Positions 2,769 to 62,259 of a DNA stretch of 64,000 bases are shown piece after piece. How positions within the stretch are numbered: position 1 is the first letter of the stretch; each line of letters starts with the position of its first letter. A program made the translations under genes and the position numbers. The DNA is from Deltaproteobacteria bacterium (GTDB lineage Bacteria > Desulfobacterota > Desulfobacteria > Desulfobacterales > ETH-SRB1), in contig JAJSZW010000001.1 of NCBI GenBank assembly GCA_030262895.1, forward strand, positions 16,360-80,359, in the 5' to 3' direction. The notes under the pieces were generated by a model, which searched no databases, was not told the DNA's origin, and was given only the letters and a program-made list of their open reading frames with translations.

Positions 2769-3031
2769 ATTTCACCTCTCCCTTCAAAGTACTTTGCTGC
2801 CGCTAATGACCCGATAAAATTCAAAATAGCGTAAACCATGATGATATCCAAAAACATCTCTATCCTGCCATAGATAAAACCCATCAGCACCAGAACCACC
2901 AATGTTTTTGTGCCGATCGCTCCGACTCCTACAATCCGGTCTATAATAGTCGGCCCGTACACTACCCGATAGAGACAAAGTAAAACAAGCAAACAAAGGA
3001 AAATACTCACGCCTAAATAAAAATTTTCCAT
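2765..3031 (-). CDS. mrpF: Mrp/Mnh antiporter subunit F
   Basis: 88 aa, MnhF-like (LYRVVYGPTIIDRIVGVGAIGTKT). GGAG lies upstream of the ATG. Confidence 0.8.
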   Translation of the reverse strand: MENFYLGVSIFLCLLVLLCLYRVVYGPTIIDRIVGVGAIGTKTLVVLVLMGFIYGRIEMFLDIIMVYAILNFIGSLAAAKYFEGRGEI

Positions 3032-5262: not shown

Positions 5263-5287
5263 TCCGTTCCTCTTCTTTCTAAATAGA

Positions 5288-5424
5288 GCCTGAACGAAAA
5301 CTGCTAATTTTTCCAATTTCTGCGCCAGGCTTAAATTTTAATCCTCAAAATACTCAATGTATTCCTGCGGTTAAAATTTGCGCCTTCCTTGAACTTGAAA
5401 AAATTTTCTAGTTTTCGTTCGGGC
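5288..5424 (-). repeat. B-family nested-palindrome element, copy B3 (inverted relative to B1/B2)
   Basis: The reverse complement matches the ~70-nt core of B1/B2 (gttcaaggaaggcg.aaatttta...ggaatacattgagtatt..gagg.ttaaaattt). It has its own terminal inverted repeat, cctgaacgaaaact / agttttcgttcggg. Confidence 0.8.
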
Positions 5425-5487
5425 ACTAAATGTGGCCTTATTTTCCTGCGTTCACACAAAAAATACGTTTTCCGAATTCAAAACGTT

Positions 5488-7831: not shown

Positions 7832-7837
7832 AATTTC

Positions 7838-8000
7838 AACCTAAGTTGAGCGATTTTTTGCGAAGAAATGTGCCGAGATCTTAATGCAGCTAGGTTTGCG
7901 AAAAGCGTAGGCATACCAATGGATATGTCGAGACTTTTCGCAAGTCCTTGATGCGCAAGAGATTGGTGCAGGTCGAGTAAAAAATTGCTCAATTTAGGTT
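7838..8000 (+). repeat. C-family nested-palindrome element, copy C1
   Basis: 22-nt terminal inverted repeat aacctaagttgagcgatttttt / aaaaaattgctcaatttaggtt (20/22). Inner repeat ttgcgaaaag / cttttcgcaa flanks the core cgtaggcataccaatggatatgtcgag. Confidence 0.75.
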
Positions 8001-8043
8001 CAATTCAGGCTGTTAAGTTTCCAGTTGGTTGCCTTGATCTTTT

Positions 8044-8207
8044 GTAACTACTCAGGTTGATAGGCTGAAGGCTGAAGACTGTTAGGAAAAAGCGCATTTT
8101 GAAGCCATGTTTGGTGCAAGAATCAGATGTTTCCGCTAAAGTACGGCAATCGTGCTCTTCTGACCCCTTCAGCCTTCAGCCTGACTACGTGACTACGTGA
8201 GTAGTTA
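8044..8207 (+). repeat. A-family MITE-like element, copy A1
   Basis: Termini gtaactactcagg...cgtgagtagtta. Arms ggctgaaggctgaag / cttcagccttcagcc. About 90% identical to the reverse complement of 56413..56584. The right end covers the stop codon of the receiver gene. Confidence 0.85.
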
Positions 8208-10290: not shown

Positions 10291-10357
10291 CACAGTTGGC
10301 AGTTAACGGTTTCTCAAAACATAAAACCGTGAACTGTAAACCGACAACCGTGAACTG
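10291..10357. repeat. GTGAACCG-word hairpin element (copy a)
   Basis: cacagttggcagttaacggtt - loop - aaccgtgaactgtaaaccgacaaccgtgaactg. It fills the gap between two kinase genes. The right arm is nearly identical to the one at 38706..38731. Confidence 0.7.
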
Positions 10358-14295: not shown

Positions 14296-14462
14296 TGAGA
14301 CCGTTGAAAAATGATCAGTTTTGTTACAGTTCAAGGAAGGCGAAAATTTTAAACGTAGTAATACATTGAGTATTTCGAGGCTTAAAATTTGAGCCTGACA
14401 CCGACACTTTAGTGAAGCTTTAGCGCTAATTGGACAAAAGGGGGCGTTTTGCAAAGGTCTCA
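14296..14462 (+). repeat. B-family nested-palindrome element, copy B1
   Basis: Terminal repeat tgagaccgttgaaaa / ttttgcaaaggtctca. About 88% identical to B2 (51076..51217) apart from a ~24-nt insertion. It starts 18 nt from the activator ATG at 14278. Confidence 0.85.
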
Positions 14463-16496: not shown

Positions 16497-16740
16497 GTAA
16501 CCGTTCACGGTTACCGGTTATACAGTTCACGGTTCAAAAAGACAAAAAGCAGAAGCGAATTATGGGATCGGCTGCGGAGCTGAGAACACAGATTTATATT
16601 TCACGAGAGGTTAATATATTTTCTGATTTAGATGCGAAAGAATTAATTCAAAAGTTGAAATCAAGATCCAAAATGCTTCAATCGTTGCATAGTTCATTGA
16701 AAAAACTGTGAACTGTGAACCGACAACCGTGAACGGTTAC
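16497..16740. repeat. GTGAACCG-word nested-palindrome element (copy b, long form)
   Basis: Termini gtaaccgttcacggtt...aaccgtgaacggttac (perfect 16-nt inverted repeat). The arms are tandem cacggtt / gtgaac words around a ~170-nt core. Confidence 0.8.
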
Positions 16741-19302: not shown

Positions 19303-19409
19303 TATAGACTTTCAGATAATTAATTTCACTGTGTTATCAGTCGTCGACGTATAGATTAATACGCCTTCCTCCTTCTATCCTTGTGAAATTAGTTATCTGA
19401 AAGTCTATA
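19303..19409. repeat. Small nested-palindrome element
   Basis: 27-nt arms tatagactttcagataattaatttcac / gtgaaattagttatctgaaagtctata (1 mismatch) around a 53-nt core. The core's reverse complement contains aggaaggcgtattaat, which resembles the B core. Confidence 0.7.
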
Positions 19410-21955: not shown

Positions 21956-23302
21956 CTACTTTATTTTTTTATTAAGATAAGCCTGTTTAACACCTATTGC
22001 TTTTGCTGTTTTAGAAATATTATTTTTATTCTGTAAAAGCTTTCTTTGAATAAATGCCTTTTCAAAGGCTCTTTTAGCATCCTTTAAGTAATCTATTAAA
22101 AAAAACTGTTCTTCGAAAGACCTTGTCTTTTCCATAGTTACCGGCTTATAAGCGTTCGGGATATCAGACGCCTCTATAATATCGCCTTCCACCATTATTG
22201 CCATCCTTTCAACAAGATTTTTCAACTCTCTGACATTTCCAGGCCACGAATAAGCGCGTATTACTTCAATTGCTTCTGCTGTCATGGTTTTTTTTGTACT
22301 TCGATTCTGTTTAGCACATTCATCAAGAAATGTTTCAATAAGTAAAGGAATATCTTCAGAACGCTCCCTTAAAGGTGGAACTTCAACAGGTATTACATTC
22401 AGCCTGTAATAAAGGTCTTCTCTGAAAGTACCCTTTTCAATCTCTTGCTCAAGATCCTTGTTGCTGGCAGCTATTATTCTTACATTCACTGTTAATATTC
22501 TATCGCCTCCAACTCGCTGAAATTGCTGCTCCTGTAGAACACGAAGAATTTTAGCCTGAGTTTTCAAGCTCATATCACCTATTTCATCCAGAAATATAGT
22601 GCCATTGTTAGCTAATTCGAATTTGCCTTTTTTCTTTGAAGTTGCTCCTGGAAAAGTGTTTTTCTCATGGCCGAACAGCTCACTCTCTATTAATTTCTCA
22701 GGAATTGCCGCACAATTTACAGCTATAAGAGGCTGATCAACCCTTGAACTCAACTGATGCATAGTACGGGCTACCAGTTCCTTTCCTGTGCCATTTTCGC
22801 CTGTTATTAATATCCAGGTATCAGTAGGGGCTACAAGCTCTATCTGCTTTTTCAGTGCTACAGTTGGCGGACTATTGCCGGTTATTGAATGTTTTTCAAT
22901 CGTCTTTTTGCGCAGATACCTGTTCTCTTCTTCAAGTCGTCTGAAATTAAGTGCATTGTTAATTGTAACAATAATGTTATCTATGGAAAGCGGCTTTTCT
23001 ATCAAGTCGTATGCTCCAAGCTTTGTTGCTTTTACTGCTGTTTCTATTGTCCCGTGACCGGTTATAATTATAACCGGAATAGTCGGATAATTTTTTTTTA
23101 TCTCTTTTAAGGTTTCAATACCATCAATACCCGGCATCCAGATATCAAGCAGAACAAGATCAGGAGATCTTTCTTCAACTATCTTTAATCCCTCATATCC
23201 ATTTGTGGCCGTTTCAATCTCAAATCCTTCATCAGCAAGCAGGCCGCTTAAAGATTGAAGTATGGAAGGCTCATCATCAACAATTAAAATAGATGGAAAC
23301 AT
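21956..23302 (-). CDS. Sigma-54-dependent response regulator (NtrC/NtrX-like: receiver-AAA+-HTH)
   Basis: 448 aa. Carries ILIVDDEPS, LDIWMPGIDG, GENGTGKE, FLDEIGD and a C-terminal HTH. The loop reads NTFPGA instead of GAFTGA. Confidence 0.85.
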   Translation of the reverse strand: MFPSILIVDDEPSILQSLSGLLADEGFEIETATNGYEGLKIVEERSPDLVLLDIWMPGIDGIETLKEIKKNYPTIPVIIITGHGTIETAVKATKLGAYDLIEKPLSIDNIIVTINNALNFRRLEEENRYLRKKTIEKHSITGNSPPTVALKKQIELVAPTDTWILITGENGTGKELVARTMHQLSSRVDQPLIAVNCAAIPEKLIESELFGHEKNTFPGATSKKKGKFELANNGTIFLDEIGDMSLKTQAKILRVLQEQQFQRVGGDRILTVNVRIIAASNKDLEQEIEKGTFREDLYYRLNVIPVEVPPLRERSEDIPLLIETFLDECAKQNRSTKKTMTAEAIEVIRAYSWPGNVRELKNLVERMAIMVEGDIIEASDIPNAYKPVTMEKTRSFEEQFFLIDYLKDAKRAFEKAFIQRKLLQNKNNISKTAKAIGVKQAYLNKKIK

Positions 23303-23313
23303 CTTGCATAGCT

Positions 23314-23478
23314 CCTTAGGGTTCGCTCAAAAATAAATTTACATTTTCAGGTGTTGAGGCGCTCGCATGGCAAGACGCAAGGAGGGCGAATAGCGAGCTA
23401 TTTAACCGACGAGCAACGTAGCCATGCGGGATGGATCGGCGCATCAAAATGTGAAGTTATTTTTGAGCGAGCCCTTAG
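23314..23478 (+). repeat. D-family nested-palindrome element, copy D1
   Basis: Terminal inverted repeat ccttagggttcgctcaaaaataa / ttatttttgagcgagcccttag. The core caaggagggcgaatagcgagctatttaaccgacgagcaacgtagccatgcggg is related to the reverse complement of 58332..58492. Confidence 0.8.
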
Positions 23479-23498
23479 TTCAGGGTTCAAGGTTTTAT

Positions 23499-25733
23499 TC
23501 AAACCGGAAGTTCAATTACAAATTTAGCTCCTTGGGGCTGGTTGTCTTGCACACGTATTCTTCCATTATGATCAGCAATTATAGTGCTGACAATTGTCAG
23601 CCCTAAACCCATTCCAGCTTTTTTGGTTGAAAAATAAGGTTCAAAGAGGCGTGTTTTATCTTCATCGGAAATACCTGCTCCATCATCAGCAACCTCTATT
23701 CTCACCATCTTTAATATAGGGTCATGAGCCAAAGTTATAACAATATTGCCCTGTTTCTTAATTGCAATTATTGCATTGTCAACCAGATTAATCATAGCTT
23801 GCTTTATTTGCTGACGATCAAGATTAATACGCGGGATCTTATCTGAAATTATAACCTTGAAATTAATGTTTTGATGACTTTCTTTGTAAAGTGCTACAGA
23901 CTCTTCGATTATTGGCGGCAATTCACAGGATTCAGGATTCGCCGTTGGGAATCTTGCAAAAGCAGAAAATTCATTTACCAGATTTCGAATCATATCAACA
24001 TGGTCAATTATCATCTGAGTACATTCCTCAAAAATCGGTTCATTTATCTTTTCCGAATATTTCCGTTTAAGTCTTTGGGCCGAAAGCGTTATCGGAGTTA
24101 GAGGGTTTTTTACTTCATGGGCAATCCTGCGAGCAACTTCACGCCACGCTATCATTCGCTGCGCTTTCTCCAAGTCAGTCAAATCATCAAAGACCATAAC
24201 TATACCCATATGGTTTCCGGAATTATCTTTGAGTTCATTAACATGTATCATAAAACTCCGAGGTCTTCCATCTATTGTAAGTTTTAAAGGAAGCTCGACA
24301 TGATCATCATGATAACCGGTAAGATTTTCTATTAGTTCTATTGCAGCGCCAAGATGTCGTCCTTTTAACAGCTTTTTATAGCTTTTGTTTAATATATCCC
24401 CGGATTTAAGATTCAGCATCTTTTCAGCAGACTTGTTAATTGTAGTAATAAATCCATTGGCCCCCAGAGTTATTACACCAGCGGAAACATTCTTTAAGAC
24501 AATTTCCATGTACTGCCGTCTTTCTTCAATTTCCACATTCTGCTCACGAAGCATTCGTGCAGAAAGTTCCAGTTGTTCTCTGCTGCTTCTGAGATCCCTT
24601 GTCATCTTATTAAATGAATCAACAAGACTTCCTATTTCATCATCAGCTACGGCACCTATGCTTACACTTAAATCTCCTTCCGCAACCCTTCGGGTGCCTT
24701 CAGCGAGCTCCATAATTGGTATTGTAATTGTCTTTGCCAGATAAAAACCAAACCATACTGCACAAAAGACAACAAGCAACGCCACTATTGAAAGATTTAT
24801 ATAATAAGTAACCTGAATAGGTCCTTTTAATAATTTTATCTGCTGGTATTCCTCGAAACCTCTTGAAATAGAAGCCATATTTTCTGAAAGATCCGAAGGA
24901 ATAAGAATATTCAATACAACAAATGCCTCGGCATCTTTATGTTTGACTCCAAAAGGGACTGTCCCGATAGTTCTTATTAACTCACCCGTATTAATGTTTT
25001 CAAAAACCGATATTACTTTTTTTGATTCAAAGTCTTTCCGGAGGTTATCTGCTGAAACAAGACTAAGATGTTCATTCTCTGGTCCCCGGACTATGGCAAA
25101 TGTAGTACGTTCTGAATTTATGTTATAAACTTCTACAGCATGGAAATTGAATGCCCGTTGGACTACCTGGATATAATGGGAAAGAGAACTTCTATTTTTA
25201 GGATCTAAAAATTGCTTGGTCTTAATCTGGTATGATATTTTTTCCATGAAAAACTGATTATTTTCCTCTGCATGTTTATAAACACTTCTTCCAACAAGCA
25301 GTGAATTTTCAAGAGCATGCTCGACAGGTACGTCAAACCAGAACTCGATGCTGGTTGTAATAAAATTGATCGAAAAGAAAAACAAAACAATGGTCGGCAG
25401 AAGGGTAAGGGCTATAAATGCAACAACAAGTCTCGTGCGGAGCTTTGCTCCCATGACTTTACGTTTTCTATCATAAAGAAGCTTTACCAGATTCCTGAAT
25501 ACAAGAAATATCAATAAGATAAGTAATAGCAAATTGATATTGATCAGAATGAACATAAGGATTGTGTTGGAAATTGGGATATCAGCTCCAAAATGAACAA
25601 TCCTGCTTTCAGCAAAAGTCAAAACCACTACGACAGCGATTATGGCGACAATCAAAATGCCTTCTCTTTTACGCCTTTTTCGTTCATCTTCTGAAATAAA
25701 GGATTTAAGCTTTTTAAATCTGTTCTTACGCAT
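23499..25733 (-). CDS. NtrY-like sensor histidine kinase (TM-HAMP-PAS-HisKA-HATPase)
   Basis: Multi-TM N-terminus, HAMP, PAS, H-box IAHEVKNPLTPI, ATPase boxes NLVDNAI, DDGAGI, GMGLGL. The ORF-track start 25793 is a TTG overlapping the upstream gene; the ATG at 25733 is preferred. Confidence 0.85.
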   Translation of the reverse strand: MRKNRFKKLKSFISEDERKRRKREGILIVAIIAVVVVLTFAESRIVHFGADIPISNTILMFILININLLLLILLIFLVFRNLVKLLYDRKRKVMGAKLRTRLVVAFIALTLLPTIVLFFFSINFITTSIEFWFDVPVEHALENSLLVGRSVYKHAEENNQFFMEKISYQIKTKQFLDPKNRSSLSHYIQVVQRAFNFHAVEVYNINSERTTFAIVRGPENEHLSLVSADNLRKDFESKKVISVFENINTGELIRTIGTVPFGVKHKDAEAFVVLNILIPSDLSENMASISRGFEEYQQIKLLKGPIQVTYYINLSIVALLVVFCAVWFGFYLAKTITIPIMELAEGTRRVAEGDLSVSIGAVADDEIGSLVDSFNKMTRDLRSSREQLELSARMLREQNVEIEERRQYMEIVLKNVSAGVITLGANGFITTINKSAEKMLNLKSGDILNKSYKKLLKGRHLGAAIELIENLTGYHDDHVELPLKLTIDGRPRSFMIHVNELKDNSGNHMGIVMVFDDLTDLEKAQRMIAWREVARRIAHEVKNPLTPITLSAQRLKRKYSEKINEPIFEECTQMIIDHVDMIRNLVNEFSAFARFPTANPESCELPPIIEESVALYKESHQNINFKVIISDKIPRINLDRQQIKQAMINLVDNAIIAIKKQGNIVITLAHDPILKMVRIEVADDGAGISDEDKTRLFEPYFSTKKAGMGLGLTIVSTIIADHNGRIRVQDNQPQGAKFVIELPV

Positions 25734-25765
25734 AATAATTTTGGAAAGAATTCTCGGACAGGCTC

Positions 25766-26329
25766 CTAGTAGATGAAATCTGTTGTATGCCAATCGGTTT
25801 TAAAGTCCTTTAGTGAAACATAATGCAGATAAAAAGGAAGGGTAAGTTTGCCACGCTCGGCTTTAGCTCTAATTTGATATTTCCCGCCTTTTTTTAGTTT
25901 GGCAAGCGGAACAATTTTTAAGCTATCAACTTGTGTCATCAACTTCTGAGCCTCTTCGAAAGATTTTGTTACAAAATGTTCTCCACTTTCTGATGAACGC
26001 GTTATAATAAATTCTTTTTTTAAATTATCATATTTAATTGTATGAGTTGTAGTTATGTCGGCTATTTTATTATCAAACCAAAAATTCTTAACTTGATAAA
26101 GACTAGTAAAAAACGTAAAAGTTGCTGGCACTCCGTTTAAGATAGCTTTTTTCGTGTCATCTCTAAAAGCCCCCTCAATATTTAAATAAAGAAGAAGATG
26201 GTCGCGTGTATTTGTTACTGTCATGTTGGCTATTCTTGCATTCTGATCCTGAGCAAAAGCCAAATTTTGCAACATGAAAATTATAGCAAAGAAAATAATC
26301 CAAGTTTTTCGATTAATTAATGTAATCAT
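25766..26329 (-). CDS. Secreted DUF4390-like protein (commonly precedes ntrY)
   Basis: 187 aa with a signal-peptide-like N-terminus. The position directly upstream of an NtrY/NtrX pair is typical for this family. The assignment rests on context and general sequence character only. Confidence 0.5.
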   Translation of the reverse strand: MITLINRKTWIIFFAIIFMLQNLAFAQDQNARIANMTVTNTRDHLLLYLNIEGAFRDDTKKAILNGVPATFTFFTSLYQVKNFWFDNKIADITTTHTIKYDNLKKEFIITRSSESGEHFVTKSFEEAQKLMTQVDSLKIVPLAKLKKGGKYQIRAKAERGKLTLPFYLHYVSLKDFKTDWHTTDFIY

Positions 26330-26333
26330 ATAT

Positions 26334-26407
26334 GTAACTGTTCAGGTTGCCGGTTCACGGTTTACGGTTCACGGTTGGTTGTATGGAACCGTGAACCGAG
26401 TAATTAC
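26334..26407. repeat. GTGAACCG-word hairpin element (copy c)
   Basis: gtaactgttcaggttgccggttcacggtttacggttcacggtt - loop - aaccgtgaaccgagtaattac. Confidence 0.75.
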
Positions 26408-29354: not shown

Positions 29355-29401
29355 AATTTATTCCTTAAAAATTTTATTTAAAAAGTAGAATAAGATACAT
29401 A

Positions 29402-29471
29402 AGGAACGTGGACGAAATAACTTCCCCAAATCTATGCGCCTACTTTGGGAAGTTATTTCGTCCACGTTCCT
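29402..29471. repeat. Perfect 25-bp-stem hairpin in a divergent intergenic region
   Basis: aggaacgtggacgaaataacttccc (29402..29426) and its exact reverse complement (29447..29471), separated by a 20-nt loop caaatctatgcgcctacttt. Confidence 0.85.
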
Positions 29472-29706
29472 AAACGAGATGTCAAAATATTGAAAATTTT
29501 ATTTTGAGTTATTATAAAAATATTATCAACTAAAAACAGATTGAAGTCAATATTTAACTCTATAATATAACATCGATTCTTATCGAAATGTAAATTCAAG
29601 GGGAATATTTTTCCTTGACATGGTTATATATTTTATATAATTTCTTAACGTTATAGACTTATTGGGGGTAAATTTCTTCAACGTTGGGTTCAACAAGGAG
29701 GTTGTT

Positions 29707-31773: not shown

Positions 31774-31955
31774 ATAACTACTCAGGTTGGTTAGGCTGAA
31801 GACTGAAGACTGAAGACCTTTAGGGAAAAGACTCCCAGAAGCCAATATTTTCTTAAAGCGGCCTGAAATTTTGTCTTAAACTTAGAGAATAACGCTCAGG
31901 AATCATCTGTTTCCTTCAGCCTTATAGCCTTCAGTCTAAACACCTGAGAACTTAC
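31774..31955 (+). repeat. A-family MITE-like element, copy A3 (long variant)
   Basis: ataactactcaggttggttaggctgaagactgaagactgaag ... ccttcagccttatagccttcagtctaaacacctgagaacttac. A4 is its inverted deletion derivative. Confidence 0.85.
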
Positions 31956-37473: not shown

Positions 37474-37484
37474 CAATTTATTAG

Positions 37485-37508
37485 CGGTTCACGATTCACG
37501 GTTTTTTT
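37485..37508. repeat. GTGAACCG-word fragment (copy d) after the EF-G stop
   Basis: gcggttcacgattcacggttttttt. One arm only, followed by a T-run. Confidence 0.5.
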
Positions 37509-38647: not shown

Positions 38648-38731
38648 TTCACGGTTTACAGTTAACGGTCTACAGTTAACTGTTGCTCAAAAATATAAAA
38701 CTATTAACTGTAAACCGACAACCGTGAACCG
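38648..38731. repeat. GTGAACCG-word hairpin element (copy e)
   Basis: ttcacggtttacagttaacggtctacagttaactgtt - loop - aactgtaaaccgacaaccgtgaaccg. Confidence 0.75.
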
Positions 38732-38737
38732 CTACAA

Positions 38738-42121: not shown

Positions 42122-42224
42122 TTTTGTGACCGACACTCAGGCCCTTGTAAAATTTATGATGGGCAAAAAGCCAGGTAGGGTGCATTCTATGCACTATCAA
42201 CGGCATATGGTATCATCTATATAA
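42114..42224 (+). pseudogene. Truncated PIN (VapC-like) toxin, only ~19 native codons left
   Basis: MDSFVTDTQALVKFMMGKK resembles a VapC N-terminus with the first catalytic Asp. The reading frame then runs into REP doublet A and stops. Confidence 0.45.
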
Positions 42225-42306
42225 TGATAAAATGTCTTGATGAGCAAAATTGAATGTTTTTTGGTGCGTAAAACACGCCCTGCGGTTTACAAACAATGAT
42301 TGAGCA
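42169..42306 (+). repeat. REP doublet A (two inverted GTAG-hairpin REPs plus spacer)
   Basis: gtagggtgcattctatgcac and, inverted, ggtgcgtaaaacacgccctgc. About 85% identical over ~140 nt to 46189..46329. Lies directly upstream of the RayT remnant. Confidence 0.8.
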
Positions 42307-46188: not shown

Positions 46189-46329
46189 AGCCAGGTAGGG
46201 TGCATTCTATGTACCATCAGCGGCATGCCTATCATCGCATACATGAATGATAAAATATCTTGACGGGCAAAATCGAATGTTTTCTGGTGCGTAAAACGCA
46301 CCCTACGATTTACAAACAATGATTGAGCA
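46189..46329 (+). repeat. REP doublet B
   Basis: gtagggtgcattctatgtacc and, inverted, ggtgcgtaaaacgcaccctac (perfect REP hairpin gggtgcg-tttta-cgcaccc on the minus strand). Direct repeat of 42169..42306. Followed by fic instead of rayT. Confidence 0.8.
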
Positions 46330-47192: not shown

Positions 47193-47306
47193 AAGATCGT
47201 CTCATCTACCAGACAAAATTAGCACTGGATGCCCCCAAGCCCTGAATACGCCCGGAGAAAAGCATTCAAAAAATCTGTAATTGTCGGCTAAACTTATAGG
47301 TTTTCG

Positions 47307-47445
47307 CAGATGAATTGATACTCTATATTGCATGATGCGACCAATGTAACACTGTGTATAGTATGCTGATTTTTAGCGCCTAAGCGCAGATTCCCTTTTT
47401 TTAAGTGAAATCAAGAGGATATATATTTTAGTATCAATTCATGTG
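47307..47445. repeat. Small palindromic element at the right edge of the island
   Basis: cagatgaattgatact (47307..47322) and agtatcaattcatgtg (47430..47445) are 15/16 complementary, flanking ~107 nt. Confidence 0.6.
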
Positions 47446-47460
47446 CGAAGATCTATAGGT

Positions 47461-50175
47461 TTAATTATAATTGTCGCTCATATTGCGCAGAACGTAAGCC
47501 AGTATCCCGCCATGCCTGTAGTAACTGAGTTCTATTGGAGAATCAATTCTTGCAATGACCCGGAATTCAGTTTTTTTGCCGTCTTTTCCTTGAGCAAAAA
47601 CACTGAGTTCCTTCAACGGCTCAAATTTATTTTCTATTCCAGCTACTTCATAAATCTCTGTTCCATCCAGACCCAGGGATTTATGGTTTTCACCCTGTTT
47701 GAACTGGAGCGGCAGGATTCCCATACATATTAGGTTGCTTCTGTGTATGCGTTCAAAACTTTCAGCAATTACCGCCTTTATACCTATGAGATATGTTCCC
47801 TTGGCGGCCCAGTCGCGTGAACTGCCGGTACCATAATTTTTTCCTGCAATTACAAGCAATGGCGTAGCTTCTTTTTGGTATTGCATTGCCGCTTCATATA
47901 TTGTCATTTTTTGTCCATCTGGTAAAAAAACCGTCCAGCCGCCGTCAATGCCGGGTACAAGCTTATTTTTTAAGCGGATGTTTCCAAATGTTCCTCTCAG
48001 CATTACTTCATGATTCCCGCGGCGTGAACCAAACGAATTAAACTCAGAAGGAGTTAAACCCTGGTCGATAAGATATGCCCCTGCCGGGCTGTCAACCGGA
48101 ATTACCCCTGCCGGCGATATGTGATCGGTTGTTATGCTATCGCCCAGCAATGCCAGAATCCTGGCTCTTTTTATATCCTGAAGTTCAGGAATTGTTTTGT
48201 TTATGTCTTTTAAAAAAGGGGGTTCTTTGATGTATGTGGATTTTGAGTCCCAATTAAAGAGTGTTCCTTCAGGAACAGGGAGAGTTTTCCATTGATTTGA
48301 TCCTTCAAACGCATTTTCATAAGCTTTTTTATACATTTCAGGACGTATAACTCTTTTCACGGTGTTTTTAATTTCTTCTGTGGATGGCCAGATTTCACGA
48401 AGATATACAGGCTTGTCGTTGTTATCCAATGCAATTGGTTCTTTATCAAAATCAATATTTATCTTTCCGGAAATTGCAAAAGCAATGACTAATGCCGGTG
48501 AAGCGAGGAAATTCGCTCTGGTAAGAGGAGAAATTCTTCCTTCAAAATTGCGGTTGCCGCTGACAACAGATGCTGCCACAAGGTCATGGTCTTTTACCGC
48601 ATCAGCTACCGCCTTTGGCAGAGGGCCGCTGTTTCCAATACAGGTAGCACATCCATATGCCACAAGATGGAACTTTAAAGCCTCAAGATACGGCATAAGC
48701 TCTGCTGCTTTTAGATAATTGATTGCAGCTTTTGATCCTGGAGCAAAGCTGGTTTTGACCCATGGTTTTACTGATAGTCCCCGTTCAACGGCTTTTTTGG
48801 CCAGCAGTCCTGCGCCGATCAGGACATTTGGATTTGATGTATTGGTACAGCTTGTGATTGATGCAATTACAACTGATCCGTGGCTGATCTTAAATTTTTC
48901 GCCATGCATATCTATATCAATTTCATTTTTTATACTAACTTCTGTAGATGGTCCGTCAGTTGAAGACGCATCCTTAAAGTCATTTAAAAAAGTTTTTTTG
49001 ATTTTAGAGAGAGGAATTCTTTCTTGTGGACGTCTTGGGCCTGCCATGCTCGGCTCTATGTCGCTCATGTCGAGTTGTATTGTATCGTTAAAAAGCGGAT
49101 CTTCCGTTGTTTTTGTTCTGAAAAGCCCCTGTTCTTTACAATAGCTTTCTATCAGGGTAATAACTTTTTCAGAGCGACCGGTTAAACGAAGGTATTTTAT
49201 TGTTTCATCATCCACAGGGAAAAAACCCATTGTTGCACCATATTCAGGAGCCATATTTGCTATAGTAGCACGATCTTCCAAGCTTAAGGCATTAACGCCG
49301 GGTCCAAAGAATTCAACAAATTTTCCAACCACTCCTTTTTTTCGCAGTAACTCGGTAATGGTGAGCACCAGATCTGTGGCTGTTGTTCCTTCAGGTAGTT
49401 CGCCGGTTAATTGAAAACCTGTCACTTGTGGCGTAAGCAGGTAATATGGACTGCCCAGCATAACAGCTTCCGCCTCTATACCTCCGACGCCCCAGCCGAC
49501 CACACCGATTCCATTGATCATTGTTGTATGTGAATCAAGGCCGACAAGGGTGTCAGGGAAAGCCATCCTCTGGCCGTCATTATTTTTGACAAATATAACT
49601 CTTGCAAGATATTCCAGGTTTACCTGGTGTATTATACCCGTGGCTGGAGGTACGACGCTTAAATTTTCGAAATTTTTCTGGCCCCATCGCAAAAAGGTGT
49701 ATCGCTCAAAATTACGTTTGAATTCTTTTTTAACATTATATTCAAAAGATTCTTTGGACCCAAAAGAATCAACCTGAACCGAATGGTCTATGACCAGCTC
49801 AACAGGAATATGAGGATTTATCTTTATTGGATTTATCTGCAAACGTTTTGCAGCTTCACGCATACCAGCCATATCCACTAAAGAGGGGACTCCGGTAAAA
49901 TCCTGCAACAGTATGCGGGCAGGCATAAAAGGCACTTCATGATATACCGGGGCATCAGCTTTCCATCCGGCCATATTTTCTATATCGCTTTTTTTTATAA
50001 TATTACTGTCTTCATTTCTAACAAGGTTTTCAAGCAAGATTTTTATGCTAAAGGGCAATCGGTCAATTCCAGTAAAACCGGAATCCGCTAATTTGCTGAG
50101 ACTGAAATAATTAACTTGACCATCTGAAGTGTTTAAGGTGGATTTTGTTCCAAAACTGTTCTTGAAATCAGCCAT
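47461..50175 (-). CDS. acnA: Aconitate hydratase A
   Basis: 904 aa. AcnA/IRP-type aconitase throughout, with Fe-S ligand regions (ITSCTNTSNP, YGCATCIGNSG). Confidence 0.95.
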   Translation of the reverse strand: MADFKNSFGTKSTLNTSDGQVNYFSLSKLADSGFTGIDRLPFSIKILLENLVRNEDSNIIKKSDIENMAGWKADAPVYHEVPFMPARILLQDFTGVPSLVDMAGMREAAKRLQINPIKINPHIPVELVIDHSVQVDSFGSKESFEYNVKKEFKRNFERYTFLRWGQKNFENLSVVPPATGIIHQVNLEYLARVIFVKNNDGQRMAFPDTLVGLDSHTTMINGIGVVGWGVGGIEAEAVMLGSPYYLLTPQVTGFQLTGELPEGTTATDLVLTITELLRKKGVVGKFVEFFGPGVNALSLEDRATIANMAPEYGATMGFFPVDDETIKYLRLTGRSEKVITLIESYCKEQGLFRTKTTEDPLFNDTIQLDMSDIEPSMAGPRRPQERIPLSKIKKTFLNDFKDASSTDGPSTEVSIKNEIDIDMHGEKFKISHGSVVIASITSCTNTSNPNVLIGAGLLAKKAVERGLSVKPWVKTSFAPGSKAAINYLKAAELMPYLEALKFHLVAYGCATCIGNSGPLPKAVADAVKDHDLVAASVVSGNRNFEGRISPLTRANFLASPALVIAFAISGKINIDFDKEPIALDNNDKPVYLREIWPSTEEIKNTVKRVIRPEMYKKAYENAFEGSNQWKTLPVPEGTLFNWDSKSTYIKEPPFLKDINKTIPELQDIKRARILALLGDSITTDHISPAGVIPVDSPAGAYLIDQGLTPSEFNSFGSRRGNHEVMLRGTFGNIRLKNKLVPGIDGGWTVFLPDGQKMTIYEAAMQYQKEATPLLVIAGKNYGTGSSRDWAAKGTYLIGIKAVIAESFERIHRSNLICMGILPLQFKQGENHKSLGLDGTEIYEVAGIENKFEPLKELSVFAQGKDGKKTEFRVIARIDSPIELSYYRHGGILAYVLRNMSDNYN

Positions 50176-51075: not shown

Positions 51076-51217
51076 GAGACCTTTGAAAAATGTTCAATTT
51101 TGTTCAAGTTCAAGGAAGGCGAAAATTTTAAATGTAGGAATACATTGAGTATTTCGAGGCTTAAAATTTGAGACTGACGCTGAAATTGGGCAAAAGGGGG
51201 CGTATTGCAAAGGTTTC
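51076..51217 (+). repeat. B-family nested-palindrome element, copy B2
   Basis: gagacctttgaaaaatg...gttcaaggaaggcgaaaattttaaatgtaggaatacattgagtatttcgaggcttaaaatttgag...cgtattgcaaaggtttc. Ends 14 nt before the dsrM ATG. Confidence 0.85.
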
Positions 51218-56412: not shown

Positions 56413-56584
56413 GTGACTACTCACGTAGTCAGGCTGAAGCTGTTTAGGCTGAAGGCTGAAGGGGTCAAAAAAGCACGATTGCAGTACTTTGGCGGAAATA
56501 TCTGATTCTTGCACCAAACATGGCTTCAAAATGCGCTTTTCCCTAACAGTCTTCAGCCTTCAGCCTATCCACCTGAGTAGTTAC
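56413..56584 (-). repeat. A-family MITE-like element, copy A2 (inverted)
   Basis: gtgactactcacgtagtcaggctgaag...cttcagccttcagcctatccacctgagtagttac. Its reverse complement aligns with A1 at ~90% identity, with one indel near one end. Lies between convergent dsrP and fdhD. Confidence 0.85.
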
Positions 56585-57935: not shown

Positions 57936-57942
57936 TTTTATT

Positions 57943-58059
57943 GTAACTACTCAGGCGTTTAGACTGAAGGTTATAGGCTGAAGGAAACAGATGATTCCTG
58001 AGTGTTATTCTCTTTCCTAAAAGTCTTCAGTCTTCAGCCTAACCAACCTGAGTAGTTAC
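57943..58059 (-). repeat. A-family MITE-like element, copy A4 (short, inverted) between rplU and rpmA
   Basis: gtaactactcaggcgtttagactgaagg...cttcagtcttcagcctaaccaacctgagtagttac. Its reverse complement equals A3 minus a ~60-nt internal segment. Confidence 0.85.
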
Positions 58060-58088: not shown

Positions 58089-58385
58089 ATGGCACACAAA
58101 AAAGCAGGCGGCAGTTCGAGGAATGGTCGGGACAGTAATGCGCAGAGGCGCGGTGTAAAACGATTTGGCGGAGAAAATGTGAGGGCCGGCAATATATTGG
58201 TTCGCCAGTTGGGCACTAAAATACATCCAGGAGAGAATGTTGGGTTAGGAAAAGATTATACCCTGTTTGCTAAAATAGATGGTATTGTTGCTTATGAGCG
58301 AATGGGACGTTCTCGTAAAAAGGTAAGTGTTTATACCTCGGAAGGCCACAACTTGCGATCTTTCGCCGGCACTGAACACCAATAG
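58089..58385 (+). CDS. rpmA: 50S ribosomal protein L27 (C-terminal ~17 codons supplied by repeat D2)
   Basis: [16 protein letters not shown]... L27 similarity ends near KKVSVY. The tail [16 protein letters not shown] is read from the inserted element. Confidence 0.9.
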
Positions 58386-58492
58386 CTGCGTTGCTCAGGC
58401 TTGAAATAGCTTGTTATTCCGCACCTTCGCGCCTTGCTCTTGATGCTCATTGCTCACCGAAAAAAACGCAATTTATGGCCTTCCGAGGTATA
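58332..58492 (-). repeat. D-family nested-palindrome element, copy D2
   Basis: 17-nt perfect terminal inverted repeat tatacctcggaaggcca / tggccttccgaggtata. The reverse complement of the core (gcaaggcgcgaaggtgcggaataacaagctatttcaagcctgagcaacgcagc) is related to the D1 core. Confidence 0.8.
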
Positions 58493-58496
58493 CAGA

Positions 58497-59507
58497 GTGA
58501 AATTTATTGATGAGGCTATTATTACCGTTCAGTCCGGCGATGGAGGCAGAGGGTGTGTTAGTTTTAGGCGTGAAAAATTTATCCCGCGGGGAGGGCCGGA
58601 CGGCGGAGATGGAGGTAAAGGCGGAGATGTAATTTTAGAGGCATCATCTCAAAAACGCACACTTTATTTTTTTAGATATAGAAAAGATTTTAAAGCAAAA
58701 AATGGTGCCGGTGGTCAAGGCAAACGCAAGGCAGGCAAACATGGCGATGACCTTGTTTTAGAAATTCCTCCAGGAACCGTGATTGGCGACGCTGATACGG
58801 GACAAGTAATCAAAGATCTTACAAAACCCGGTGAAAAATATATAATAGCTAAAGGCGGCAGAGGTGGACGGGGTAACGCTCGTTTTAAAACATCAACAAA
58901 CCGTGCGCCTCGTTTTGCTCAGCCAGGTGAATCAGGTGAAATATTAAAACTTAAACTCGAACTCAAACTTCTTGCCGATGTTGGTATAATCGGTCTTCCC
59001 AATGCCGGCAAATCCACCCTTATCAGCGCAATTTCTTCAGCACATCCCAAAACAGGAAGTTATCCTTTTACAACTCTTGTCCCAAATCTCGGCGTTGTTA
59101 AAACAGACTGGGGAGAGCCTTTTGTCGTGGCAGATATTCCAGGTTTGATAGAAGGTGCACATAAAGGCGCCGGGCTTGGTATAAGATTTTTGCGCCACAT
59201 AGAAAGAACACGTATTCTTATTCATTTGATAGATTCGTCATCCATTGATCCGGCAGATCCACTTATGTCATATAAAACTATAAATAAAGAACTGGAAATG
59301 TATAATAAGGAGCTTGCAAAAAAATCTCAAATAGTTGTTCTTAACAAGATTGATATGCCTGATGCTAAAAAGGCTGTTGATATTTTTCAAGCTTTTGCCA
59401 AGGGGATCAAAATCATATTGATTTCGGCTTTAACCGGAGAAGGAATTGATAATTTAAAATCAAAAATTGTTCAATCCCTAGATAAATTAGACAAATTAGA
59501 TGAATGA
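58497..59507 (+). CDS. obg: GTPase Obg/CgtA
   Basis: (V)KFIDEAIITVQSGDGGRGCVSFRREKF, GLPNAGKST, DIPGLIEGA, NKID. GTG start at 58497 with GAGG upstream; the ORF-track start 58434 lies inside repeat D2. Confidence 0.9.
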   Translation: MKFIDEAIITVQSGDGGRGCVSFRREKFIPRGGPDGGDGGKGGDVILEASSQKRTLYFFRYRKDFKAKNGAGGQGKRKAGKHGDDLVLEIPPGTVIGDADTGQVIKDLTKPGEKYIIAKGGRGGRGNARFKTSTNRAPRFAQPGESGEILKLKLELKLLADVGIIGLPNAGKSTLISAISSAHPKTGSYPFTTLVPNLGVVKTDWGEPFVVADIPGLIEGAHKGAGLGIRFLRHIERTRILIHLIDSSSIDPADPLMSYKTINKELEMYNKELAKKSQIVVLNKIDMPDAKKAVDIFQAFAKGIKIILISALTGEGIDNLKSKIVQSLDKLDKLDE

Positions 59508-62203: not shown

Positions 62204-62233
62204 AAAACCGTAAACCGTGAACTGTAAACCGTT
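62204..62233. repeat. GTGAACCG-word fragment (copy g) after proA
   Basis: aaaaccgtaaaccgtgaactgtaaaccgtt. One arm only. Confidence 0.55.
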
Positions 62234-62259
62234 ATTATTTATCATGAAAGGTCTATTTT

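Follow-up and report, generated by a model that had tools for sequence, protein, structure and literature searches.

The spacer between the ntrY and ntrX genes of a Desulfobacterales genome is occupied by a long imperfect inverted repeat (23315-23478), and the question raised by this locus is whether the hairpin belongs to the host operon, is a module of the REP kind, or is mobile DNA of another sort. Its 33-nt outer arms are 88% complementary, and the predicted fold has a free energy of -82.3 kcal/mol on the plus strand (z = -8.3 relative to shuffled sequences) and of -57.9 kcal/mol on the minus strand. More elements of this type reside in the window, i.e. the whole stretch of 64,000 nucleotides analyzed (Table 1). 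According to a sequence-only reading, several families appear to share one core, made up by GTAG and a short hairpin, inside unrelated outer palindromes, and could be processed or mobilised by an HUH/Y1 enzyme. The core strings then listed are all present where they had been placed, and the outer repeats are indeed unrelated between families and self-complementary within each family. The mobile unit is a different one. The hairpin at this locus, called D1, is very probably a MITE, a short element without coding capacity derived from an insertion sequence of the cut-and-paste (DDE) type, and belongs to a set of mosaic families having a core module in common.

Table 1. Genes, elements and repeats of the window. 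R1 and R2 are covariance models of the 29-nt B apical module and of the D core, respectively.
Feature	Position	Strand	Remarks
ntrY-ntrX spacer	contains 23315-23478		196 nt, between two minus-strand genes
NtrY-type histidine kinase gene	23499-25793	minus
NtrX-type sigma-54 response regulator gene	21956-23302	minus
D1, 156-bp MITE	23319-23474	plus (core-sense)	antisense to ntrY and ntrX; absent from the spacers of relatives
D1 left target-site duplication copy	23316-23318		TTA (TAA in ntrX sense); empty site in L127
D1 left terminal inverted repeat	23319-23347	plus	GGGTTCGCTCAAAAATAA...; same end type in >60 other copies
D core, conserved apical module of D1	23370-23422	plus	GCAAGACGCAAGGAGGGCGAATAGCGAGCTATTTAACCGACGAGCAACGTAGC; R2 77.3 bits, E = 4e-16
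D1 right terminal inverted repeat	23446-23474	plus
D1 right target-duplication copy	23475-23477		TTA
D2, 153-bp MITE	58336-58488	minus	ends CCTCGGAAGGCCA...; core 58385-58437; R2 66.4 bits
D2 target duplication	58332-58335 and 58489-58492		TATA
B1, B-family MITE	14297-14461	plus	type-1 ends GAGACC...GGTCTC; apical module 14353-14381
B2, B-family MITE	51076-51217	plus	type-1 ends; module 51132-51160
B3, B core in type-2 ends	5285-5427	minus	ends AGTGCCCGAACG...CGTTCAGGCTCT; module 5342-5370
C1, C-family MITE	7840-7998	plus	ends CCTAAGTTGAGC...; candidate module 7905-7934
C1 target duplication	7835-7839 and 7999-8003		TTCAA
19303 element (family E)	19305-19407	minus	core GGAAGGCG, then hairpin
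19303 element duplication	19303-19304 and 19408-19409		TA
H element, short form	29402-29471		near-perfect 28-bp palindrome; without the common module
A-family MITEs	8044-8200, 56413-56584, 31775-31948, 57941-58059		GTAACTACTCAGG ends, GGCTGAAG sub-repeats
Heptamer arrays	10300-10357, 16497-16534, 16695-16740, 26351-26398, 37481-37505, 38648-38734, 62204-62248

The ntrY-ntrX spacer is only 13-37 nt long, and devoid of D1, in L124, L125, L127 and L128. In the relatives compared, NtrX is 89-93% identical to the window protein, and a single TAA is found at the empty site. The sequence of L127 reads ...CCCTGCAC-TAA-GGAGCTATACC..., that of the window, in the same sense, ...CCCTGAAC-TAA-(GGGCTCGCTC...GAGCGAACCC)-TAA-GGAGCTATGC..., the element being in parentheses. 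One TAA is present in L127, TAA-element-TAA in the window; therefore, a 156-bp unit (23319-23474; -81 kcal/mol on the plus, -57 on the minus strand) inserted at TAA between the two genes, and TAA was duplicated. With the right copy of the duplicated TAA (within 23475-23486), TAAGGAG, the ribosome-binding site of ntrX, is restored, and the translation signals of this gene are therefore intact after the insertion. The identical element is found in a nearly identical strain (JGI metagenome). D1-type copies in other contigs are exactly 156 bp long in 42 of 61 complete copies, and identical 3-bp flanks, mostly TTA (28 copies) or TAA (12 copies), likewise mark 42 of the 61. In L126, the NtrX of which is 95% identical, the same spacer (2775-3000) hosts a different, repeat-rich element of ~200 bp containing tandem GTGCCTAAA units, and thus was struck independently.

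The second D element, D2, lies between rpmA and obg; its core-sense strand is the minus strand and, as in D1, is antisense to the operon in which the element resides. Relatives with an Obg 87-92% identical again have an empty site, GTGTTTATACAGAGTGAAATTT; in L250 and L251 it was read as GTGTTTATACAGAGTGA. In these relatives the stop codon of rpmA and the start codon of obg overlap, and ribosomal protein L27 is 84 aa long. The insertion struck the last rpmA codons, L27 terminating with ...VSVYTE (84 aa) in the relatives and reaching 98 aa in the window, and broke the ancestral GTGA overlap of rpmA stop and obg start (58332-58497). The true start of obg is the GTG at 58497. TATA flanks both sides in 8 of 11 D2-type copies. 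The part common to D1 and D2 is restricted to the ~53-nt apical core, the arms of the two elements being unrelated; the same core thus occurs within different ends and between different target duplications, and we are therefore dealing with one core and two vehicles.

MITEs are sequences shorter than about 600 bp which have no coding capacity, feature terminal inverted repeats, and are flanked by a target duplication. D1, D2 and B elements are short, contain no ORF, are bounded by terminal inverted repeats, and exist as many dispersed copies; duplications matched by empty sites were found for D1 (TAA), D2 (TATA) and E (TA). The outer stem of D1 is a pair of terminal inverted repeats, and several such MITE families are shown to reside in this Desulfobacterales genome. 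We considered, and rejected, an origin of the arms from inverted copies of host flanks, or from hairpins already in place which received the core, because the empty sites identify the whole palindrome as the insert, and because many genomes contain these ends.

Target duplications differ between families, measuring 2, 3, 4 or 5 bp, and different transposases may move different MITE families; D1 would have been inserted by a transposase acting in trans. Elements of the IS5 family (IS1031 group) and PIF/Harbinger 'Tourist' elements typically make a 3-bp stagger at TWA, and 40 of the 42 identical 3-bp flanks of D1-type copies are either TTA or TAA. From the length and the sequence of the target duplication alone we infer that the D1 mover may be of the IS5/PIF-Harbinger kind. 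No autonomous partner with matching ends was detected in ~1.7 Mb of loci, chosen for holding MITEs. Widely spaced pairs of terminal repeats, inspected as potential autonomous elements, all turned out to be two MITEs with ordinary genes between them. Nothing relevant was found in the literature on MITEs in Desulfobacter relatives, or on the genome of strain BuS5.

B elements are 141-165 bp long. The core of B3 is 90% identical to the cores of B1 and B2. With a 22-base pattern of the B core, species-representative genomes yielded more than 116 matches, and nearly all of those listed are from Desulfobacterales, Desulfobacteraceae or Syntrophaceae MAGs. The B core is found with three end types, each of which is itself conserved across species, types 2 and 3 being kept across many MAGs. 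Identical 5-bp flanks were observed in 39 of 69 type-1 copies, identical 4-bp flanks in 17 of 41 type-2 and type-3 copies taken together. G+C-rich hairpin cassettes of 24-35 nt (e.g. CCCCGTACGATCTTCCGGACCTACGGGG and AGCGCTAAAGCTTCACTGCGTGCC) are inserted into the B scaffold at a small number of constant sites, in copies from L023, L024, L025, L028, L033, L035, L041, L044-L046 and L090.

In the D family the module is extended to a core of ~53 nt, GCAAGGCGCGAGGAGGGCGAATAGCrAGCTATTTAACCGACGAGCAACGCAGC, which sits at the hairpin apex within at least five end types, and is almost unchanged in contigs ranging from 38 to 71% G+C. At least 120 stretches of metagenome DNA were hit by the D-core pattern. 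Copies of B and D alike were collected by exact pattern, and are thus bound to be identical at the positions which the pattern specifies.

More than 230 other contigs contain copies, among which are intermediates between families. In L065, L118 and L076, ends of the D1 type enclose CCGTAG-GAATAGCGAGCTATTT-CGAGGA, a module with the hairpin of D1, identical in sequence, and the flanks of B, which is scored 28 bits by R1 (E = 0.0013 in 632 kb). The 16-mer GAATAGCGAGCTATTT is identical in D1, in L065-type elements and in the long form of H. A G+C-rich D type, GAG-GAATAGCCGAGCTATTT-CGAGGA-GGAGCAACGCAGC, has B-like flanks inside the D core, and is scored 19.6 bits by R1; the closest named homologs of proteins of its host, from Acidobacteriota and Wenzhouxiangellaceae, are only 54-57% identical. 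All in all, the hairpin GAATAsc..gsTATTT and its purine-rich flanks are found at the apex of at least six terminal-repeat families, associated with 3-, 4- or 5-bp duplications. Within the window, the octamer GGARGGCG, a motif selected post hoc, was counted 8 times where 2 were expected, a count of 8 being reached in none of 100 shuffles, and 5 of the 8 sites are located just 5' of the apical hairpins of B1, B2, B3, the 19303 element and D1. Judged from the copies in other genomes, the module is common to B, D and related types. The families are mosaics, in which a conserved apical module is embedded within ends differing from one family to another.

Plasmid NZ_CP087953.1 of the cultured strain Desulfosarcina sp. 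BuS5 contains a D-type copy (100043-100206; L249 6001-6164), which is not annotated and is 77% identical to D1. A diverged hairpin which keeps GGCAAGGCGCGAGGA...CGAGCAACGCAGC, with conserved flanks and a different middle, is found in pTHN, an alphaproteobacterial megaplasmid of Novosphingobium sp. THN1 (L253 2985-3075). These two copies were retrieved by a BLAST search of plasmids, which provided no informative annotation. Of 4 matches to the D pattern in viral contigs, one was inspected and proved to be due to chance, and the others were dropped.

Identical 5-bp flanks were found in 6 of 9 C copies. All of 8 family E copies are flanked by TA, and empty sites are present in L124 and L128. The long form of H, found in L013, measures 180 bp, has the same ends as the 29402 palindrome, and carries GGAATAGCGAGCTATTTC. 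The 29402 palindrome sits within an insertion of ~130 bp (29372-29500), bordered by a 12-bp direct repeat, AAAATTTTATTT, and missing in L124. The A copy found in the rplU-rpmA spacer is present, as a longer form, in L250, is absent from L251 and L252, and lacks the common module. C1 is scored 9.2 bits by R1 (E = 6.2) and the 19303 element 8.3 bits by R2 (E = 6.8); both weak hits fall on the apices, in the orientation earlier proposed, and the link of C and of the 19303 element to the module is only suggestive.

Nested insertions were observed in L044 (a B element inside a 19303-type core), L076 (a C element inside a B element) and L013 (an H-type element inside a B element). The module may have been inherited from a common ancestor of the families, the ends having been replaced since, or may have spread by nested insertion and subsequent recombination.

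Additional repeats were noticed in the window. Arrays of ACGGTT[CT]-type heptamers, often arranged as inverted pairs, are found at many gene ends and represent a separate class of intergenic repeats; the Rfam mir-999 match to one such array is due to chance. A single-copy hairpin of 175 nt (47289-47463) adjoins the aconitase gene, and is strongly strand-asymmetric too (-63.6 vs. -48.1 kcal/mol). Repeat F, ~140 nt long, is present in two copies ~90% identical (42169-42306 and 46189-46329), the former preceding the 42441 gene, the latter a Fic-domain gene.

The conserved core might be more than a passive leftover, namely a module which functions in a strand-specific manner, as RNA or single-stranded DNA, and is carried as cargo by many unrelated MITE vehicles; we regard this as possible, and rather doubtful. 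The near invariance of the core over at least five end types and 38-71% G+C, in spite of unrelated arms, speaks in its favour, as do the flanks conserved in the diverged Novosphingobium copy, the enrichment of GGARGGCG just 5' of the hairpins, and the variable hairpin inserts at fixed points of B, a feature of structured RNAs. Folding is also strand-specific. Of 14 arm types, for the most part unrelated in sequence, 13 have a core-sense strand which folds better than its complement; the difference is usually 10-35 kcal/mol, and over the 14 types 81 G.U pairs are found on the core strand and 33 on the complement. All of 41 full-length D1-type copies behave in the same manner. A strand-specific fold answers no obvious need of a cut-and-paste DNA transposon.

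Copy-specific non-Watson-Crick pairs in type-1 B elements are G.U in 54 cells (17 states) and A.C in 11 cells (8 states). The corresponding ratio in D1-type copies is 20:16 independent states, which is not significant, and therefore ongoing selection is not shown in these copies. In the apical hairpin, 97% of cells are paired and a single pair covaries, and a DNA palindrome would behave alike. This scant covariation, found in copies picked by pattern, weakens the case for a functional core. The same holds for the orientation of B elements relative to the flanking genes (25 same, 15 opposite), which shows no clear bias; neither this nor the antisense position of D1 and D2 fits a simple role as read-through RNA. 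Nor do the elements match Rfam 15, neither at gathering score nor up to E = 5, and sigma-70 or sigma-54 promoters are not evident by eye within the core. Searches for tRNA and tmRNA genes were negative. Kink-turn, hammerhead and other ribozyme folds were considered for the conserved flanks, and discarded as misfits by inspection, with no Rfam match.

Use of the core-sense strand as RNA is the more likely, and preferred, reading of the asymmetry, single-stranded DNA or a mutational bias being possible. The module has probably been retained since the core-sense strand must fold when single-stranded, as RNA more likely than as DNA. Tentatively, the D core and its shorter B relative may be a functional module specific in sequence and strand, either a small structured RNA or the site of a conserved protein on single-stranded DNA, captured and spread by at least 4-5 mechanistically different transposon vehicles among bacteria differing widely in base composition.

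The opposite reading, according to which the families are unrelated and resemble each other by chance or low complexity, is improbable. It draws on the window statistics. All-against-all blastn of the intergenic regions returned only matches within families. Local alignments compared to dinucleotide shuffles gave p~0.006 for B1-D1, and p~0.008 for both B1-C1 and C1-E, and none of these survives correction for 66 pairs. In the window R1 recovered B1, B2 and B3 with E < 1e-7, and listed neither D1 nor D2; R2 retrieved D1 (77 bits) and D2 (66 bits) and nothing else significant. Cross-family similarity within the window is thus marginal against shuffled controls, and it is copies from other genomes that link B to D. 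The alignment of D1 and D2 made by eye had been anchored on the wrong GTAG, as the homologous hairpin, GAATAGC..GCTATTT, lies upstream of it, and the similarity of A1 and of the 29402 loop to the core found no support.

Against chance stand the 16-mer GAATAGCGAGCTATTT identical in D1, L065-type and long H elements, the R1 match to a non-B element at E = 0.0013, one 53-nt core inside unrelated ends, and the excess of GGARGGCG. Chance holds only for A and the short form of H, and is refuted for B and D. The claim of one module shared among unrelated palindromes is accordingly borne out for B and D, by the copies from other genomes, has weak evidence for C and the 19303 element, and fails for A1 and the 29402 loop.

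REPs processed by RayT-type HUH enzymes consist of a GTAG tetranucleotide beside an imperfect hairpin; in REP and REPIN sequences a conserved GT[A/G]G is found 5' of the hairpin, and REPs are often arranged as inverted doublets. To our knowledge, neither REP/RAYT nor IS200/IS605 elements generate target duplications or have terminal inverted repeats. PATEs, derived from IS200/IS605, feature subterminal hairpins at both ends, and insert 3' of a fixed tetra- or pentanucleotide with no duplication; the elements described here have inverted repeats and duplications, and are not of this type.

That our elements are REP/REPIN-like modules, processed or mobilised by a RayT-type HUH (Y1) enzyme, is very improbable, and is already largely refuted. 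GTAG is found 5' of a short imperfect hairpin in some copies (B1, B2, C1), and strand-specific folding is what may be expected of a single-stranded DNA substrate. Yet only 10 of the 89 B copies have GTAG before the hairpin, the others having ACAG, GCAG or GGAG, and the D core has GGGC at this position, so that GTAG is not a signature of the module. Each element has a single apical module, and inverted doublets are missing. No Y1 gene, and no other transposase, was found among ~30 window ORFs scanned against Pfam. What moves is not a module nested in a palindrome, but the whole palindrome, having terminal inverted repeats, target duplications and orthologous empty sites, and the same inverted repeats and duplications contradict mobilisation by an HUH/Y1 enzyme.

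The least probable alternative is that the elements are immobile, free-standing structured ncRNA genes or regulatory hairpins of host operons, as their great stability (z below -8) and location inside operons might suggest; they are missing from the same spacers in close relatives, are flanked by target duplications, and occur in hundreds of copies in unrelated contexts, and the reading is refuted because empty sites exist.

MITEs are ordinary, and the finding is first of all a correction, D1 being the relic of a transposon and not a REP/HUH substrate. Unusual is the conservation of the centre across families, duplication types and 38-71% G+C, whereas the ends, which transposases must recognise, are unrelated. 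If the core is functional, it would be a rare case of a bacterial structured module disseminated by several transposon systems; were it indeed cargo, MITEs would be delivery vehicles and not plain junk. Insertions inside operons alter genes, as D2 gives ribosomal protein L27 a new C-terminus and abolishes the rpmA/obg overlap, and annotators should mask these elements.

REP/REPIN sequences mobilised by RAYT resemble the elements described here for the short imperfect hairpin, sometimes preceded by GTAG, and the strand-specific folding. They differ because duplications and terminal inverted repeats are present here, GTAG is not conserved, doublets are missing, and the scanned window ORFs include no RAYT. 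Enterobacterial BIMEs, pneumococcal BOX elements and RIMEs are similarly intergenic, made up by recurring blocks, and have a strong potential for secondary structure; in our families, in contrast, the blocks lie inside true terminal inverted repeats flanked by duplications, and a single apical module is found instead of an array.

Correia (CREE/NEMIS), ERIC and RUP elements likewise are MITE-like palindromes of 100-160 bp residing within operons, which form a fold once transcribed and may affect how neighbouring genes are expressed. No sequence similarity to these families was observed, and each of them has one end type. Stowaway-like MITEs of the IS630/Tc1-mariner type resemble family E only, by the TA duplication and the short terminal inverted repeats, whereas D, B and C elements duplicate 3, 4 or 5 bp.

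Tourist-like MITEs of the IS5 (IS1031-group)/PIF-Harbinger type resemble D1, which is 156 bp long and non-coding, has terminal repeats starting with GGG and a TWA duplication, and exists in many copies, with insertion polymorphism between relatives. Differences concern the arms of D1, complementary along their entire length, the candidate partner IS, not found in ~1.7 Mb, and the apical core, which is conserved in sequence, not palindromic, and common to families with other ends. D1 is thus a MITE of a known general kind within an undescribed mosaic superfamily.
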